DNA from: Candidatus Levyibacteriota bacterium
GTDB lineage: Bacteria > Patescibacteriota > Microgenomatia > Levybacterales > UBA12049
NCBI GenBank assembly: GCA_030651475.1
Contig: JAUSEW010000035.1
Coordinates: 1-54,161 of the forward strand
DNA: 54,161 nt
Reading direction: 5' to 3'
Numbering within the stretch: position 1 is the first letter of the stretch; every line of letters begins with the position of its first letter. Positions 19,858 through 31,701 of the stretch are shown here, in pieces. Under the pieces are notes generated by a model that saw only the letters and a list, made by a program, of their open reading frames with translations, made no database searches and was not told where the DNA came from. A program made the position numbers and the translations under genes.

Positions 19858-21157
19858 ATCTTAAAAAAGTCCTCGTAATTACGATTGCGGAAAACATTGA
19901 TACCAAAACTCCGATTGCCAAAACAAGCGCAAATCCCCTTACTGTTCCTGTACCAAATTGGTACAGAATAGCACTGGTTATAAGAGTCGATATATTAGAA
20001 TCTCTAATCGAAGCCCAAGCTCTTGAAAAACCAAGCTCTATGGCTATATCTTGCGGTTTTTTAAGACGTGTCTCCTCTTTTATTCTTTCGAAAATTAATA
20101 TATTCGCATCAACTGCCATACCGATAGATAAGATAAAACCGGCAACCCCCGATAAAGTTAATGTTATGCCATAGGGAGTTAAAGCACTGATTTTGAAAAT
20201 TGTCAATACGAATAACGCATAAAGAGATAAGGCAACGCTTGCCAATATACCAAGCCTTCCGTAAGAAACACTCATAAATATTACTATAATAATAAATCCC
20301 AAAGCTCCGGCAAAAAGACTCATATTCAAAGACGTTGAGCCCAATGTGGCATCTACAGTATGCTGTTCTAGGGGAATAAGAGGTACGGGCAATGCGCCCG
20401 CATTAAGTTGAGTACTTAAGTCTTTTGCCTGTTCGAAAGTAAATCCTCCTGTAATAACAGCATTACCATTAAGAATCGGGGTATTAACTCTTGGAGCTTC
20501 TATAACCCTATCATCCAACACTATCGCAACTATTTTATTTACATTTTTCGTTGTAATATTGGCAAACTTCTGGCTTCCGGAAGATGTAAAACTTAATTGC
20601 ACCTGCGGTTTACCCGTATTTGAATCAAACGTAACGCTTGTTTCCTGAAGATCTCTGCCGCCAAGATCTGTTTTTATTGCGTTTGGACCTAAGGTTTCCA
20701 AAATTCCAAGAGGATATGCTGAAGAACTAGCTAGTTTTGCGCTCCCGCTTGCACCTTCTTCCCAAAAAGAAAGGCTTGCTGTTGTTCCTATGATTCTTTT
20801 TGCCTGATCTATGTTAACGCTTGGCAGCTCAACTATTATTCTTCCTTCACCGTTCACATTCGCTGTCTGCACTAAGGGTTCCGAAACTCCGAATAAATTA
20901 ATTCTTTTTTCTATTATTGTTTTGGCAGATTCCAAAGCTTGATTTCTTTGGCTGTTGGGAATGCTAGACATATTTGCCTTATAGGTAATGCTGGTTCCTC
21001 CGGCAAGATCCAAGCCTTTTCGGAAATCTAAACCTTTATTTATGGCTAAAAACTTAAATATAGAATTAGAAGTTTTTATTACGGGGAAATTAACTATAAC
21101 TGCAAATATTGTTAAAACTATAATTAGCCAAAGGAGAAATCGCGGTTTTTGTCTCAT
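19841..21157 (-). CDS. secD: Protein translocase subunit SecD
   Basis: GLDLAGG, RINLFGVSEP, LNAGALP, GMAVDANILIFERIKEE. Confidence 0.96.
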   Translation of the reverse strand: MRQKPRFLLWLIIVLTIFAVIVNFPVIKTSNSIFKFLAINKGLDFRKGLDLAGGTSITYKANMSSIPNSQRNQALESAKTIIEKRINLFGVSEPLVQTANVNGEGRIIVELPSVNIDQAKRIIGTTASLSFWEEGASGSAKLASSSAYPLGILETLGPNAIKTDLGGRDLQETSVTFDSNTGKPQVQLSFTSSGSQKFANITTKNVNKIVAIVLDDRVIEAPRVNTPILNGNAVITGGFTFEQAKDLSTQLNAGALPVPLIPLEQHTVDATLGSTSLNMSLFAGALGFIIIVIFMSVSYGRLGILASVALSLYALFVLTIFKISALTPYGITLTLSGVAGFILSIGMAVDANILIFERIKEETRLKKPQDIAIELGFSRAWASIRDSNISTLITSAILYQFGTGTVRGFALVLAIGVLVSMFSAIVITRTFLRYGYNR

Positions 21158-21212
21158 AGATTCGAATTCCTCACTATGACCCTGAGCGAACGAAGTGGGT
21201 CATAGGGGTCAT
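21154..21212. repeat. Palindromic mini-element E1 between duplicated ATGA junction sequences
   Basis: TCAT at 21154-57 and 21209-12; stem CTATGACCC/GGGTCATAG; 15/16 match to 30382-30397. Confidence 0.7.
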
Positions 21213-29362: not shown

Positions 29363-30322
29363 TTAAATTATCTTTCTCCAATAGTCCAGAGTATCTTTTA
29401 AAGTAGTTTCCAATGCGATTTTGGGTTCCCATCCGGTCTTATCTGTAAACTTTTTTCTATCACATATCAATTCTTGTTCATCGGAGGGACGGAAACGTGA
29501 TTTATCAACTTTTATCTCTATATTTTTTTTTGATAACAATAGGAGTTTATCTAGAATTTCAGATATCCTGTAAGATGAACCGCTGCCTATGTTATATACA
29601 TCCCCAACCGCACCTTTTTCTAGGGCAAGAAGATATGCTTTAACCATATCTCGAACATCCGTAAAATCCCTTTTCGCAGAAAGGTTGCCTACGAAAATAG
29701 TTGGCTCTGTTTTACCATTTTCTATCTCTGCAATTTGCTTGGCAAATGACGCAACTACAAATTTAGGAGATTGTCTTGGTCCTATATGATTGAATGGCCT
29801 AACTCTAATTATTTTAAGTCCATATGATAAAAAATATTGGAAACCTAAAAAATCTTGGGCTATTTTGGAAACGGAATATGTATTTGTCGGTCTAAAACTT
29901 GTTTCTTCATCTATAGGCAGGTCTTTTTTGTCAACGATACCGTATACATCCGCTGATGAAATTATAAGTATTTTCGTATCTAAAAGTTTGGACTTACGAA
30001 TTGCTTCCAAAAGATTTATTTGGGCTGTTACATTATTCGTTATGGTTGCTGCGGGATTTGCAAAACTATCAGCAGGAGAGGTTAACGCAGCCAAATGAAA
30101 AACTATGTCCGGCTTATACTCATCTATTAAAAGGTTTACTTTTTTATCATCAAGCAAATTAAGCTTTATGGGTTCAATTTTTTCTTTTATGCCGGCTATC
30201 AAACTTAGACTTTCATCTGTTAAATATGTACCCTTAATAGCAAAGTTACCTAATGATAATAAATATTCTGCTAAAAAACTTCCGGCGAAACCGGTAATTC
30301 CTGTTATAAAAACTTTCTTCAT
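29363..30322 (-). CDS. GDP-4-keto-6-deoxy-D-mannose reductase-like (Rmd) SDR
   Basis: TGITGFAGS, YSVSK, RPFNHIGPRQS, GNLSAKRDFTDVRD; adjacent to gmd. Confidence 0.75.
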   Translation of the reverse strand: MKKVFITGITGFAGSFLAEYLLSLGNFAIKGTYLTDESLSLIAGIKEKIEPIKLNLLDDKKVNLLIDEYKPDIVFHLAALTSPADSFANPAATITNNVTAQINLLEAIRKSKLLDTKILIISSADVYGIVDKKDLPIDEETSFRPTNTYSVSKIAQDFLGFQYFLSYGLKIIRVRPFNHIGPRQSPKFVVASFAKQIAEIENGKTEPTIFVGNLSAKRDFTDVRDMVKAYLLALEKGAVGDVYNIGSGSSYRISEILDKLLLLSKKNIEIKVDKSRFRPSDEQELICDRKKFTDKTGWEPKIALETTLKDTLDYWRKII

Positions 30323-30412
30323 ACGTTCGATACGTTCGGTAAACTCAGTATCGCACTGAGCATTGCCGAATGTGCGACAAGCTCAGTATGACCCTGACGA
30401 AGAATGGGTCAT
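30319..30412. repeat. Compound palindromic mini-element E2 between duplicated ATGA junction sequences
   Basis: TCAT at 30319-22 and 30409-12; stems ATGACCC/GGGTCAT and TTCGGTAA-CTCAGT/ACTGAG-TTGCCGAA. Confidence 0.7.
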
Positions 30413-31701
30413 CTTCCGACACCAACATACGTAAAGCCCATTTGTCTCATTTCAGCTGGATCGTAAATATTTCTTCCGTCCAGTAGGATTGGATTTTCCA
30501 TAATGTTTTTCATTTTCTTTAAATCCAGTTGTCTAAATTCATTCCATTCCGTAACTAAAATCAAAAGATCGGAATCTTTAGCTGCAGCATAGGCATTTTG
30601 GACAAATTCTACATCTTTAAGGAGTTTTCTTGCATTAGTAATTGCAATAGGATCGTAGGCTTTTATTTTCGCCCCCATACTTTGAAGTTTATTAATAATA
30701 GTAATCGAAGGAGCATATCTCATATCATCCGTATCGGGTTTAAACGCTAATCCCAATATTCCAATTGTTTTATTTTCGACTTTACCTCCTAAAAGTTTCC
30801 TTGCTTTTTCAACTATTCTAATCCGGGCTTCTTCATTTATGCTTTCTACGTCCTTAAGAAGGGTGAAGTCGTATCCGTTTTCTCTTGCAATTACTATTAA
30901 GGCTTTTACATCCTTGGGAAAACAGCTGCCGCCAAATCCTGCTCCGCAATCCAGAAACGCCTGCCCAACTCTTTTATCTAATCCTACTGCTTTCAAAACA
31001 TCCGGACCATTTGCCCCGGTTGCCTCTGAAAGGAAAGCGATCGCGTTAGCAAAAGAGATTTTCGTTGCAAGGAAAGCGTTGGAGGCGTACTTTATCATCT
31101 CGGCAGTTTCAATATTTGTCTTAACGACATTTCCGTCAATCGGCCTATGAAGCTCAATTAATAAATCTTGGGCTTTTTTAGACTCTGCTCCTATGATAAT
31201 TCTGTCCGGATGAAGTGTGTCGGAAATTGCCTGTCCTTCACGGAGAAACTCCGGAGATGAAGCTATATCAAAGTTAACTTTTTTAGATTTTACCTTGCTT
31301 ATTATGTCTTTTACTTTTTTATTTGTCCCAACGGGAACAGTACTTTTCGTTATAACTACCGTATAATGAGTGAGGTTTTCTCCTATTTTTTTCGCTACTT
31401 CAAAAACGGTTGATAAATCCGCTTCGCCGCTTGAAGCTGAAGGAGTTCCAACGGCGATAAACACTACGCTTGACCCCTCTATTGGTTTTTTATAATCAAG
31501 AGTAAATAACAAACGCTTAGCTTTAACATTACGTTTGACTATTTCTTCTAATCCCGGCTCGTAAATAGGCAGTATTCCTTTTTTCAGATTTTCTATCTTT
31601 TCCTTTGTATGACCTATCACCCACACGATATTTCCTAAGTCTGCGAAAACCGAAGCTGTTACTAAACCTACATAGCCATGACCCACGAATGTAATTGTCA
31701 T
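30409..31701 (-). CDS. ugd: UDP-glucose/GDP-mannose 6-dehydrogenase
   Basis: VGHGYVG, IAVGTP, KSTVPVG, PEFLREG, KYASNAF, GGSCFPKD, LAFKP. Confidence 0.93.
   Translation of the reverse strand: MTITFVGHGYVGLVTASVFADLGNIVWVIGHTKEKIENLKKGILPIYEPGLEEIVKRNVKAKRLLFTLDYKKPIEGSSVVFIAVGTPSASSGEADLSTVFEVAKKIGENLTHYTVVITKSTVPVGTNKKVKDIISKVKSKKVNFDIASSPEFLREGQAISDTLHPDRIIIGAESKKAQDLLIELHRPIDGNVVKTNIETAEMIKYASNAFLATKISFANAIAFLSEATGANGPDVLKAVGLDKRVGQAFLDCGAGFGGSCFPKDVKALIVIARENGYDFTLLKDVESINEEARIRIVEKARKLLGGKVENKTIGILGLAFKPDTDDMRYAPSITIINKLQSMGAKIKAYDPIAITNARKLLKDVEFVQNAYAAAKDSDLLILVTEWNEFRQLDLKKMKNIMENPILLDGRNIYDPAEMRQMGFTYVGVGR

Follow-up and report, generated by a model that had tools for sequence, protein, structure and literature searches.

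Two probable generations of a gene-less hairpin repeat at a ugd/rmd junction in a Levyibacteriota genome

We have identified, at a gene junction of a Levyibacteriota bacterium, a 94-nt element (E2) that probably represents two generations of one small, gene-less mobile DNA hairpin repeat, abundant in a Levybacteria-like (CPR) clade. Our analysis supports the insertion of a second element into a first element of the same kind. The repeat is apparently an undescribed family of ultra-small (CPR) bacteria. The literature search returned no paper in which its loop sequences are reported as a repeat, and no relevant paper linking CPR/Patescibacteria with REP- or MITE-like repeats. Mobilization of the family is inferred; no mobilizing enzyme was identified, and neither an intermediate nor a new insertion was observed.

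E2 lies between a ugd-like and an rmd-like gene in the window, by which we mean the whole stretch of 54,161 nt that was analyzed. Its parts, the neighboring genes and an un-nested sister copy (E1) are as follows:

30409-31701: UDP-glucose/GDP-mannose dehydrogenase gene (ugd-like); its stop is the TGA of the left ATGA of E2
29363-30322: GDP-mannose-dehydratase/epimerase-family gene (rmd-like); its start is the last ATG of E2
30319..30412, minus strand: whole of E2, from the ugd-like stop to the rmd-like start; a 90-nt insertion plus the pre-existing ATGA
30409..30412, minus strand: left ATGA; TGA is the ugd-like stop, ATG a relic copy of the original overlapping start
30388..30412, minus strand: outer hairpin 1 with a reverse-type loop; stem ATGACCC/GGGTCAT, loop ATTCTTCGTCA
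30375..30390, minus strand: 5' half of outer hairpin 2; stem CATAC and the first 11 nt of the forward loop, TGAGCTTGTCG
30328..30374, minus strand: nested inner unit; 47 nt including one copy of the duplicated TCG
30319..30327, minus strand: 3' half of outer hairpin 2; loop remainder AAC, stem GTATG and the A of the right ATGA
30383..30412, minus strand: mini-ORF of 9 codons, ATG ACC CAT TCT TCG TCA GGG TCA TAC TGA (MTHSSSGSY*)
21154..21212, minus strand: E1, between an unnamed 191-aa ORF and secD

Read on the minus strand (30412..30319), E2 is ATGACCCATTCTTCGTCAGGGTCATACTGAGCTTGTCGCACATTCGGCAATGCTCAGTGCGATACTGAGTTTACCGAACGTATCGAACGTATGA. The ATGA-flanked element with 86 nt between its ATGAs, which an earlier note had proposed for this junction, can thus be read directly. 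The loop of outer hairpin 1 is a shortened version of the family's ATTCGAC..GCTCA, and the stem and order of this hairpin are also found in E1 and in further copies. The rmd start codon sits within the GTATG stem of outer hairpin 2. The inner unit consists of a reverse-loop hairpin (TCGCAC / a-TTCGGCAATGCTCA / GTGCGA) and a forward-loop hairpin (CGATAC / TGAGTTTACCGAAC / GTATCG); its middle CGA mirrors the flanking TCG, and covariance-model matches fall in its region at 30328-30353(-) and 30351-30377(+). The predicted RNA fold of E2 has an energy of -35.3 kcal/mol (z = -2.8), and in it ACTGAGCTTGTCG pairs with CGGCAATGCTCAGT. The extra hairpin that the note had pointed out is therefore real; it forms where the interrupted outer loop pairs with the inserted unit's loop, which has the opposite orientation, and is no separate module. 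A second ATACTGAG..CGAACGT module, likewise reported before, is indeed present, and the 3' end carries a tandem pair of CGAACGTAT. No T-run terminator was found in E2. Rfam 15 matched two tRNAs in the window and nothing at E2, where the best sub-threshold match for 30250-30480 scored 18.9 bits against a threshold of 52.

Each hairpin of the family combines a conserved 13-14-base loop (TGAGCTTGTCGAA or its complement) with a locus-specific stem. Strict hairpins with the loop TGAG-N4-6-CGAA number 65 in the genome, compared with 1-12 (mean ~4) in 20 shuffles, and 38 of the 65 lie outside ORFs in a genome that is ~91% coding. The covariance model gave 42 matches in this 0.91 Mb genome and 0-63 per genome in 61 relatives; in an even sample across the phylum, matches were found in 11 of 150 genomes (1-3 each). 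Family modules occur at dozens of unrelated genes, at tRNAs and inside ORFs, and tandem 48-nt arrays of the repeat exist (L202). E1 and E2 share the order ATGACCC..TCAGGGTCATA-n-TGAG..TCGAA..ATGA, as had been suggested, with an E value of 0.006 in a within-genome BLAST comparison. Chance resemblance between the two was ruled out by the shuffles and the family census: both are family members, far above the genome background that would have undone the comparison.

The arrays, together with modules that alternate in orientation as in BIMEs and REPINs, leave room for E2 being a REP/BIME- or REPIN-type cluster of inverted short repeats, moved in trans by RAYT-like Y1 (HUH) transposases. Two Y1_Tnp proteins with HUH and Y motifs are in fact encoded in the genome:

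C6:104077-104676: Y1_Tnp gene; Pfam 54 bits, NCBIfam REP_Tyr_transpos 53 bits (cut-off 80)
C6:86673-87368: Y1_Tnp gene; Pfam 42 bits, NCBIfam REP_Tyr_transpos 49 bits (cut-off 80)

We nevertheless consider such an origin unlikely, since it is the loop that is conserved and not the stem, and no GTAG-type foot is present. RAYT-like genes correlate weakly with the hairpins, the counts of hairpins and Y1 genes over the 61 relatives giving a Spearman coefficient of 0.42 (p = 0.0009) and a Fisher p of 0.0014, without correction for phylogeny. Against this stand three genomes with many hairpins and zero Y1 genes (G017, 97% complete, with 28 hairpins; G035 with 34; G031 with 33) and one with 5 Y1 genes and zero hairpins (G014). 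By the same uncorrected counts, four genomes have at least 10 hairpins but no Y1 gene, and 15 have Y1 genes but fewer than 10 hairpins. Up to 9 Y1 genes occur per genome, unlike single-copy RAYTs. The idea that TGAG..CGAA hairpins flank the RAYT genes also had to be abandoned: the RAYT-like gene of the source genome (G000) is flanked by another palindrome family, ACCCCWGGGGT (~7 copies), and among the matches listed, the hairpins of G010 and G021 are not adjacent to Y1 genes.

The stems follow a rule of their own. A target word X of 3-8 nt stands as a direct repeat on either side of the unit, with its reverse complement X' between the two hairpins, so that the middle is paired with one flank in each hairpin. 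Conservation of the 13-14-nt loops is equal in both orientations; a reading of the loop as a k-turn/tandem-GA RNA motif was set aside because the complementary orientation is equally conserved. Among 54 metagenomic contexts in which both loops are identical (27 fixed nt), there are 36 different middles and at least 18 different sequences of X. Two stems of at least 6 bp form with the copy's own flanks in 30 of the 54 contexts; when middles were reassigned to other loci, two stems of even 5 bp or more formed in just 3.6%. Filled and empty sites within the genus define X at several further loci: C9:22367 (ATGA to ATGA[45]ATGA), C6:144269 (repeat GTATGA), C17:197365 (X = GGTTGA, X' = TCAACC) and C9:83363 (X = TTAT, X' = ATAA). 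At C18:46497, three states are found within the genus, namely empty, canonical unit, and hairpin plus nested unit. An orthologous copy at C11:7319 carries a compensatory change (CATAG/CTATG to CATGG/CCATG), which speaks for selection on the stem. At least one copy, that at C4:32279, stands at a non-ATGA site to which it brought its own ATGA, and the copy at C18:34081 carries 5-9 nt from the left flank of its paralogue; together, these two fit microhomology copying and not one clean mechanism.

Complementarity of X' to the flanking word, which holds in every filled/empty pair, is also what would be seen if X' were an inherited guide as in IS200/IS605, choosing ATGA, TTGA or TCG, with E2 the product of two guide-directed insertions. 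X' is constant in sub-lineages (e.g. the ATGA class in G000), the nested class carries CGA and CAC/GTG in 17/17 cases, and the ATGA taken along by the C4:32279 copy fits as well. With 27/27 loop nucleotides identical, however, the variety of X and of middles means that every change of a guide would need a matching change at the element's own end. The length of the direct repeat varies, and the target word stands on both sides here, whereas IS200/IS605 give no duplication. A guide is therefore doubtful.

For the expansion inside E2, the earlier note had left modular growth and element-into-element insertion side by side; insertion is borne out by a natural shorter allele and by 17 nested contexts, and modular growth by slippage remains as the less likely option. 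If the 47 nt at 30328-30374, which have a TCG repeat of 3 nt at their borders, are taken out, what remains is a canonical two-hairpin unit whose loop TGAGCTTGTCGAAC is intact. An E2 allele shorter by 47 nt was found in contigs from two groundwater runs independent of each other (X8 and X9), where 3 letters, TCG, fit both sides of the gap; exactly the bases predicted from sequence to form the nested block are missing there. The evidence for this allele comes from assembled contigs aligned to the window only. The inner unit occupies the identical loop position (..TCG-unit-AA..) in 17 distinct outer hairpins of other genera, among which the outer loop has 15 variants and the outer stem 12. L151 provides a further nested case, there within a reverse loop and again at the palindromic TCGA. 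The pattern scan for the inner unit across 596 Gb of contigs gave 53 matches against ~52 expected by chance and was used only after filtering; family context was present in ~20 of the 53, almost all of them CPR.

Hairpins promote replication slippage, and an expansion made in place, by slippage or tandem duplication of the ATACTGAG..CGAACGT module, has in its favor that the module does occur twice, next to the tandem CGAACGTAT at the 3' end. The two modules differ at 3/15 aligned positions and the inner unit recurs alone elsewhere, which makes tandem duplication less likely. The 47-nt block also has a reverse-oriented loop that copies nothing else in E2, recurs in 16 other, unrelated outer hairpins, always at the same point of the loop, and matches a copy on a second contig of the genome (C18:46495-46558) at 89% identity. 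We regard expansion in place as very improbable. For the favored second insertion, the polarity from the short allele to the nested E2 is inferred, and the reverse, a deletion between the TCG repeats, is also possible.

Comparison of the junction among relatives extends this series. Equally long, non-palindromic junctions in relatives would have refuted the nested-insertion proposal, but the relatives have a bare 4-nt overlap ATGA (ggaagATGAagaaag), seen in four genus-level (G002, L141, L143 and L148) and six family-level relatives. Full E2 is present in G000, G001 and L145, the two lineages besides the source genome matching it at 94/94 bases, and a 12-nt remnant, ATGAcccatcga(a/g)cgtATGA, stands alone in L142, L144, L146 and L147. 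Assembly artefact was rejected as a cause, full E2 being present in three assemblies independent of one another and the shorter allele in contigs of two runs. These states are discordant with the tree of the flanks and require at least four state changes among 11 sequences. G001 has among the most diverged flanks (13.5%) but a nested E2 that is 100% identical, and a simple two-step vertical history is thus insufficient. The island of identity between G000 and G001 comprises E2 plus 5 and 11 nt only (110 nt) within flanks that are ~13% diverged; transfer by homologous recombination is accordingly unlikely, although not excluded. A cis-regulatory RNA dedicated to rmd (leader, attenuator or thermometer) in place of a mobile repeat is barely credible, for all the strong fold, the start codon within a stem and the full conservation between these two lineages, given that the junction of closer relatives lacks E2, that the same modules stand at dozens of unrelated genes, at tRNAs and inside ORFs, and that E2 has neither an Rfam match nor a T-run terminator.

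The mini-ORF of E2 begins at the ATG overlapping the ugd stop, terminates in frame at the TGA of the outer forward loop, and ends 61 nt before the rmd ATG. Similar mini-ORFs are found in other copies of the ATGA class: that at C18:34055 starts at the left ATGA and stops at the right ATGA, and six others end 12-19 nt upstream. Translation of the mini-ORF is inferred and has not been shown. The insertion may be tolerated because translational coupling is relayed through these 9 codons, a suggestion made without RNA data, since the search for transcripts turned up no RNA run containing the locus. The UGA would directly follow CAUAC, the 5' strand of the outer hairpin whose 3' strand GUAUG holds the rmd start, and a terminating ribosome would melt the stem beside the rmd start codon, whatever the loop contains.

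We propose that E2 arose in two steps. In the first, evident from the filled/empty sites, a canonical two-hairpin unit, ATGA-ccc-(reverse loop)-ggg-TCAT-ac-(forward loop TGAGCTTGTCGAAC)-gt-ATGA, entered the ATGA of the ugd/rmd stop/start overlap; with ATGA on both sides, ugd keeps its TGA and rmd its ATG. In the second, supported by the natural 47-nt-shorter allele and 16 parallel cases, another unit of the family entered the TCG(A) of the first unit's forward loop, duplicating TCG. From the equal conservation of both loop orientations we infer that the element acts at the DNA level. X' may be written or rewritten to mirror the target rather than inherited as a fixed guide, either at insertion by fold-back/template-switch copying or afterwards by quasipalindrome template switching. 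Secondary spread is envisaged via microhomology among sites sharing X, chiefly start codons followed by A, and loss may proceed through precise deletion between X repeats.

It is possible, and we put this forward only tentatively, that the family represents a previously unrecognized class of mobile DNA in prokaryotes, a 'mirror' element that is protein-less or served by an unknown enzyme. Its heritable parts would be two 13-14-nt words only, with one direct and one inverted copy of the target written per insertion. Its preferred sites would be start codons, -35-like TTGAC words and the TCGA of the family's loops, and it could convert empty alleles of diverged relatives without co-converting their flanks. 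If this were true, every copy would be base-paired to its own site, the preference for TCGA in its own loops would explain nesting, and flank-free conversion would explain the 110-nt island of identity.

Of all bacterial mobile DNA, small repeats are understood least, and dozens of copies are unexpected in CPR genomes of ~1 Mb. At the ugd/rmd junction, bare ATGA, simple unit, nested unit and remnant form a natural series of a kind rarely available for a single site, and this series defines the insert to the base. Identical loops with target-mirroring stems constitute a rule that no described transposition mechanism predicts and that is directly testable. Placement at overlaps and start codons is a natural experiment on translational coupling and on the tolerance of operons to insertions. 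In practical terms, such repeats break assemblies, mislead gene callers and give spurious 'structured RNA' candidates in CPR genomes.

Among known systems, IS200/IS605 elements enter on the 3' side of an invariant tetra- or pentanucleotide and do not duplicate their target, and transposon-directed target choice by base pairing was reportedly described for IS608 by Barabas et al. in 2008. The family is like these elements in its hairpins at both ends, a short word inside that is complementary to the one at the insertion site, and its precise loss, and differs in having no transposase gene, no parent IS that could be found and a word that varies in length and sequence among identical cores. The family keeps to no such fixed target, with the target on both sides and ATGA, GTATGA, GGTTGA, TTAT and TCG all seen in filled/empty pairs. 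Nesting is known for MITEs such as the Correia/CREE elements of Neisseria and the Rickettsia palindromic elements. E2 shares with MITEs small non-autonomous insertions that are polymorphic between close relatives, tolerated in operons and genes, and nested element in element. Its inserted DNA (CCC...GTATGA) has no terminal inverted repeats, however, its direct repeat of 3-8 nt has no fixed length, and nested copies enter the family's own loop at one specific position. A search of the genome, which was not systematic, found no parent IS with ends of the E2 type. Quasipalindrome template switching, an error of replication by which an imperfect hairpin has one of its arms corrected to fit the other, is said to have been treated by Ripley in 1982 and by the Lovett laboratory. 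It could make the middle word mirror new flanks, but it is a mutational process and not an element, and to our knowledge no repeat family has been described in which it operates systematically.

REP copies share an imperfect-palindrome stem and a conserved foot tetranucleotide such as GTAG, and RAYT genes, usually one per genome, have their own REPs/REPINs on either side (PMC3116915, PMC3337134, PMC8266576). The present family resembles REPs, BIMEs and REPINs as short, gene-less, mostly intergenic hairpin repeats in inverted pairs and arrays, with patchy copy number between relatives and Y1/HUH transposase-like genes in the genome. Inverted doublets able to form one long hairpin, as in REPINs, also occur here, the outer forward loop of E2 pairing with the inner reverse loop. 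A shared stem and foot are absent, since stems here vary by copy and the 13-14-nt TGAG..CGAA loop is invariant. The target word, direct on both sides and inverted in the middle, is a further difference, as are RAYT-like genes that are not flanked by the repeats and are missing from some copy-rich genomes. MIRUs are mycobacterial direct tandem units of 46-101 bp that insert at start codons and stop/start overlaps, where an internal small ORF can relay translational coupling (PMC12548453). They lack the two-hairpin, conserved-loop architecture, have no sequence relation to the family and belong to an unrelated phylum, and the mini-ORF of E2, for its part, stops short of the rmd start. The E2 family is nonetheless like MIRUs in its placement at start codons and overlaps, and in the C18:34055 mini-ORF that spans the unit from its left to its right ATGA.

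The element E2 occupies the junction between two minus-strand ORFs, and its minus-strand sequence (window positions 30412..30319) is ATGACCCATTCTTCGTCAGGGTCATACTGAGCTTGTCGCACATTCGGCAATGCTCAGTGCGATACTGAGTTTACCGAACGTATCGAACGTATGA. The features concerned are:

30409-31701, minus strand: UDP-glucose/GDP-mannose dehydrogenase-family ORF (ugd), 430 aa, its stop being the first TGA of E2
30319-30412, minus strand: E2
29363-30322, minus strand: GDP-mannose-dehydratase/epimerase-family ORF (rmd), 319 aa, its start being the last ATG of E2
21154-21212: E1, an un-nested sister copy

The order of parts is common to E1 and E2, and the RNA fold of E2 (-35.3 kcal/mol, z = -2.8) is stronger than those of 200/200 shuffles; the description in the earlier note thus holds at its coordinates. 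The left end of E1 is partly duplicated (gcATGAcccctATGACCC), so that the gene upstream terminates in the first of two ATGAs, 9 nt ahead of the one belonging to the hairpin.

The window corresponds to contig C20 of a genome of 0.91 Mb (G000; 37% GC, 96% complete). A strict scan for hairpins with a TGAG-N4-6-CGAA loop and 4 bp or more of stem returned 65 in this genome versus 1-12 (mean ~4) in 20 shuffled genomes, a census by which the likeness of E2 to E1 is repeat-family membership rather than chance. Of the 65, 38 fell outside crude ORF calls, even though ~91% of the genome is coding. With 19 of the hairpins as its basis, a covariance model matched 42 times here and 0-63 times across 61 relatives of the same order; in an even, phylum-wide sample of 150 genomes, 11 had matches, only 1-3 each. 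Oriented with the downstream gene, the typical unit is ATGA-ccc-[TTCGACTTCGCTCA]-ggg-TCAT-ac-[TGAGTTTATCGAA]-tgt-ATGA, which folds as two hairpins whose conserved loops are mutually reverse-complementary in type (a forward TGAG..CGAA loop and its complement, the reverse loop).

Several further occurrences were recorded. Approximately 27 hairpins lie within ORF calls (e.g. C6:40810, C9:11313, C17:216504, C18:30344), including a sub-family within long ORFs, again by crude calls, with the stem (T)GCCC/GGGT(G), often with CTT just before it; these copies could represent in-frame insertions, or pieces of a longer GC-rich repeat. At C18:58560-58760 (L007, L009) a tRNA gene is directly followed by three family hairpins with stems GACTC/GAGTC and GCCC/GGGC, the first abutting the tRNA 3' end. 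Four metagenome contigs (L202, L212, L233, L250) carry 2-3 exact tandem repeats of a 48-nt unit, GGATTGTCCCG-[reverse loop]-GGGTTAATCC-[forward loop], so the family also grows as BIME-like arrays. Outside CPR, the same two-hairpin architecture occurs in Omnitrophota and Planctomycetales MAGs (L091, L133) with a 7-nt mirrored word (CAGGCGC ... GCGCCTG ... CAGGCGC). CPR-type elements are also found in MAG records labeled 'uncultured Gammaproteobacteria' (L094, CAYPUE010000020.1; L100, L102, L116, L119, L130, L135, L140). These labels look wrong; L094 and C20 of G001, a same-genus relative of G000, are one and the same contig of 13,563 nt.

E2 interrupts the ATGA stop/start overlap as an insertion. 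The ugd-rmd junction of G002, of the same genus, is empty (ggaagATGAagaaag), and the bare ATGA overlap is also present in six family-level relatives; others have short, unrelated spacers. The earlier note had called for this comparison, and the junction in relatives is not equally long. Eight more genus-level contigs, obtained via close rmd homologues, comprised three empty junctions (L141, L143, L148), one full E2 (L145) and four (L142, L144, L146, L147) reading ATGAcccatcga(a/g)cgtATGA, a 12-nt remnant in which 5 nt from the element's start and 7 nt from its end survive.

E2 is itself composite. Without 47 nt (30328-30374, between TCG...TCG) it is a canonical unit with the second loop TGAGCTTGTCGAAC. 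This nested form was deduced from sequence, and the un-nested allele was afterwards seen when Logan contigs from other groundwater runs were compared with the window: contigs of runs X8 and X9 lack exactly 30328-30374 (3 letters fit either side), and another X8 contig, lacking 30330-30403, has the remnant form. The 47-nt-shorter contig has 0 differences from E2 in its retained 47 nt, with flanks 8.7% different. The inner unit also has two hairpins, TCG-cac-a-[TTCGGCAATGCTCA]-gtg-CGA-tac-[TGAGTTTACCGAA]-c-gta-TCG; a C18 copy 89% identical to it is likewise nested, in a different outer stem. In 17 distinct contexts, at loci from other genera, the inner unit sits at one forward-loop position, ..[T/C]CG|unit|AA.., among 15 outer-loop variants and 12 outer stems; in 11 of these stems the pairing spans 4 bp or more. 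In L151 a unit lies within the same TCGA, but of a reverse loop. A second kind of nesting interrupts the C17:189029 copy (C17:189000-189120), as compared with its paralogue C4:32279 (C4:32230-32360), by a GC-rich palindromic insert of ~31 nt (CCTTCGGCTCTGAGGCTCAGGCTCGAAGAGG) within the reverse-hairpin stem. Element-into-element insertion, one of the two readings offered in the earlier note, is borne out by the shorter allele and the 17 contexts; it is both recurrent and position-specific. The GC-rich motif of that insert also occurs near C6:5594.

In all filled/empty pairs a short target word, X, occurs a single time at the empty site; the filled site has it on both sides, with its reverse complement, X', between the hairpins.

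Target words and their mirrored copies
E2 outer unit: X ATGA, X' TCAT
E2 inner unit: X TCG, X' CGA
C9:22367: X ATGA, X' TCAT
C6:144269: X GTATGA, X' TCATAC
C17:197365 (-35-like word before a tRNA): X GGTTGA, X' TCAACC
C9:83363: X TTAT, X' ATAA

Inheritance of X' was tested by scanning a metagenome collection for the exact loop pair TTCGACTTCGCTCA-N8-12-TGAGTTTATCGAA (27 fixed bases). This returned 69 loci in 54 distinct contexts with 36 different middles. In 30 of these contexts the middle paired with its own flanks as two stems of 6 bp or longer; when middles were dealt to other loci, two stems of even 5 bp or more formed in only 3.6%. The portion common to both stems was 3-8 nt long and comprised at least 18 sequences, including TTGA, TCAT, CGAA, TTAG, TCCTA and ACGAGC. 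Since identical loop pairs have many middles that match their own flanks, the mirrored letters are locus-specific on identical cores. Judged from sequence alone, this is hard to reconcile with X' as an inherited guide and points to the mirrored letters having been copied from the target, at insertion or later. As an exception, C4:32279 is at a non-ATGA site and brought its own ATGA along, and the C18:34081 copy includes 5-9 nt that belong to the left flank of a paralogue, C6:130693; the latter suggests spread among X-sharing sites via microhomology or template switching.

Copies turn over between close relatives. C18:46497 is an empty site, a canonical unit or a hairpin with a nested unit in the three genus genomes, and at C18:34081 G000 and G001 have different units and G002 none. 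At ugd-rmd, E2 states are discordant with the maximum-likelihood flank tree, on which one group holds G000 (full), L148 (empty) and G001 with L145 (full), and a second has L143 (empty) nested among remnant-bearing lineages; at least 4 state changes are required.

Flank divergence from G000 over the common 576 flank bases
X8 contig, 47-nt-shorter allele: 8.7%
G002, empty: 9.5%
L148, empty: 10.2%
L142, L144, L146, L147, remnant: 10.8-15%
G001, full E2: 13.5%

E2 is identical in G000 and G001 (94/94 bases), against 13.4% mismatch over 3,094 aligned columns. Windows of 94 nt have a median of 12 mismatches and a minimum outside E2 of 4, and the longest stretch without a mismatch, 110 nt, consists of E2 plus 5 and 11 nt (next longest, 39). 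Other orthologous copies in this genome pair are 8-16% diverged, one with a compensatory stem change. Three explanations seem possible, and we cannot choose between them: recurrent exact loss under near-absolute constraint on E2, a renewed insertion of this composite at this site, or allele conversion between lineages with hardly any flank co-converted.

A 9-codon ORF (MTHSSSGSY) runs from the left ATGA of E2 to the UGA that opens the outer forward loop, directly 3' of CAUAC, which pairs with the GUAUG holding the rmd start. In the absence of RNA data, we infer that the left ATGA would keep the original re-initiation site, and that a ribosome terminating at the UGA would open the stem beside the rmd start codon. 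Insertion into the loop would not disturb the CAUAC/GUAUG geometry, a possible reason for nesting being tolerated (or preferred) in loops. In other ATGA-class copies the right ATG starts a real ORF in 7/8; six of their mini-ORFs end 12-19 nt upstream and one in the right ATGA itself. As an inference on expression, the arrangement is similar to that reported for MIRUs (PMC12548453).

G000 encodes two Y1/HUH transposase-like proteins with the RAYT-like motifs HFHFLL and YIHRNP:

C6:104077-104676 (L063): RAYT-like Y1/HUH gene
C6:86673-87368: RAYT-like Y1/HUH gene

Across 61 relatives, genomes with more Y1 genes tend to have more hairpins (Spearman 0.42, uncorrected for phylogeny). However, no hairpins lie beside Y1 genes among the matches listed in other genomes, one genome that is 97% complete lacks Y1 genes despite its 28 hairpins, and the C6:104077-104676 gene is bracketed by another small palindrome family, ACCCCWGGGGT (~7 genome copies), which may be its cognate REP. 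The mobilizing enzyme is therefore not assigned despite the correlation.

The repeat family matches nothing in Rfam, and we found no publication that describes it. Like REP/BIME/REPIN sequences and MITEs, the family is small, gene-less, hairpin-forming, polymorphic between relatives, arranged in inverted pairs and arrays, and nestable. It differs from REPs in its unconserved stem and in RAYT-like genes that lack flanking copies of the repeat, from IS200/IS605 derivatives in having a duplicated target word that varies, and from MITEs in having neither terminal inverted repeats nor a fixed-length duplication. On these defining features it departs from all three groups. The family belongs to a known kind, the small non-autonomous hairpin repeats, and the chance is substantial that the way it inserts, mirroring its target, represents a new mechanism.
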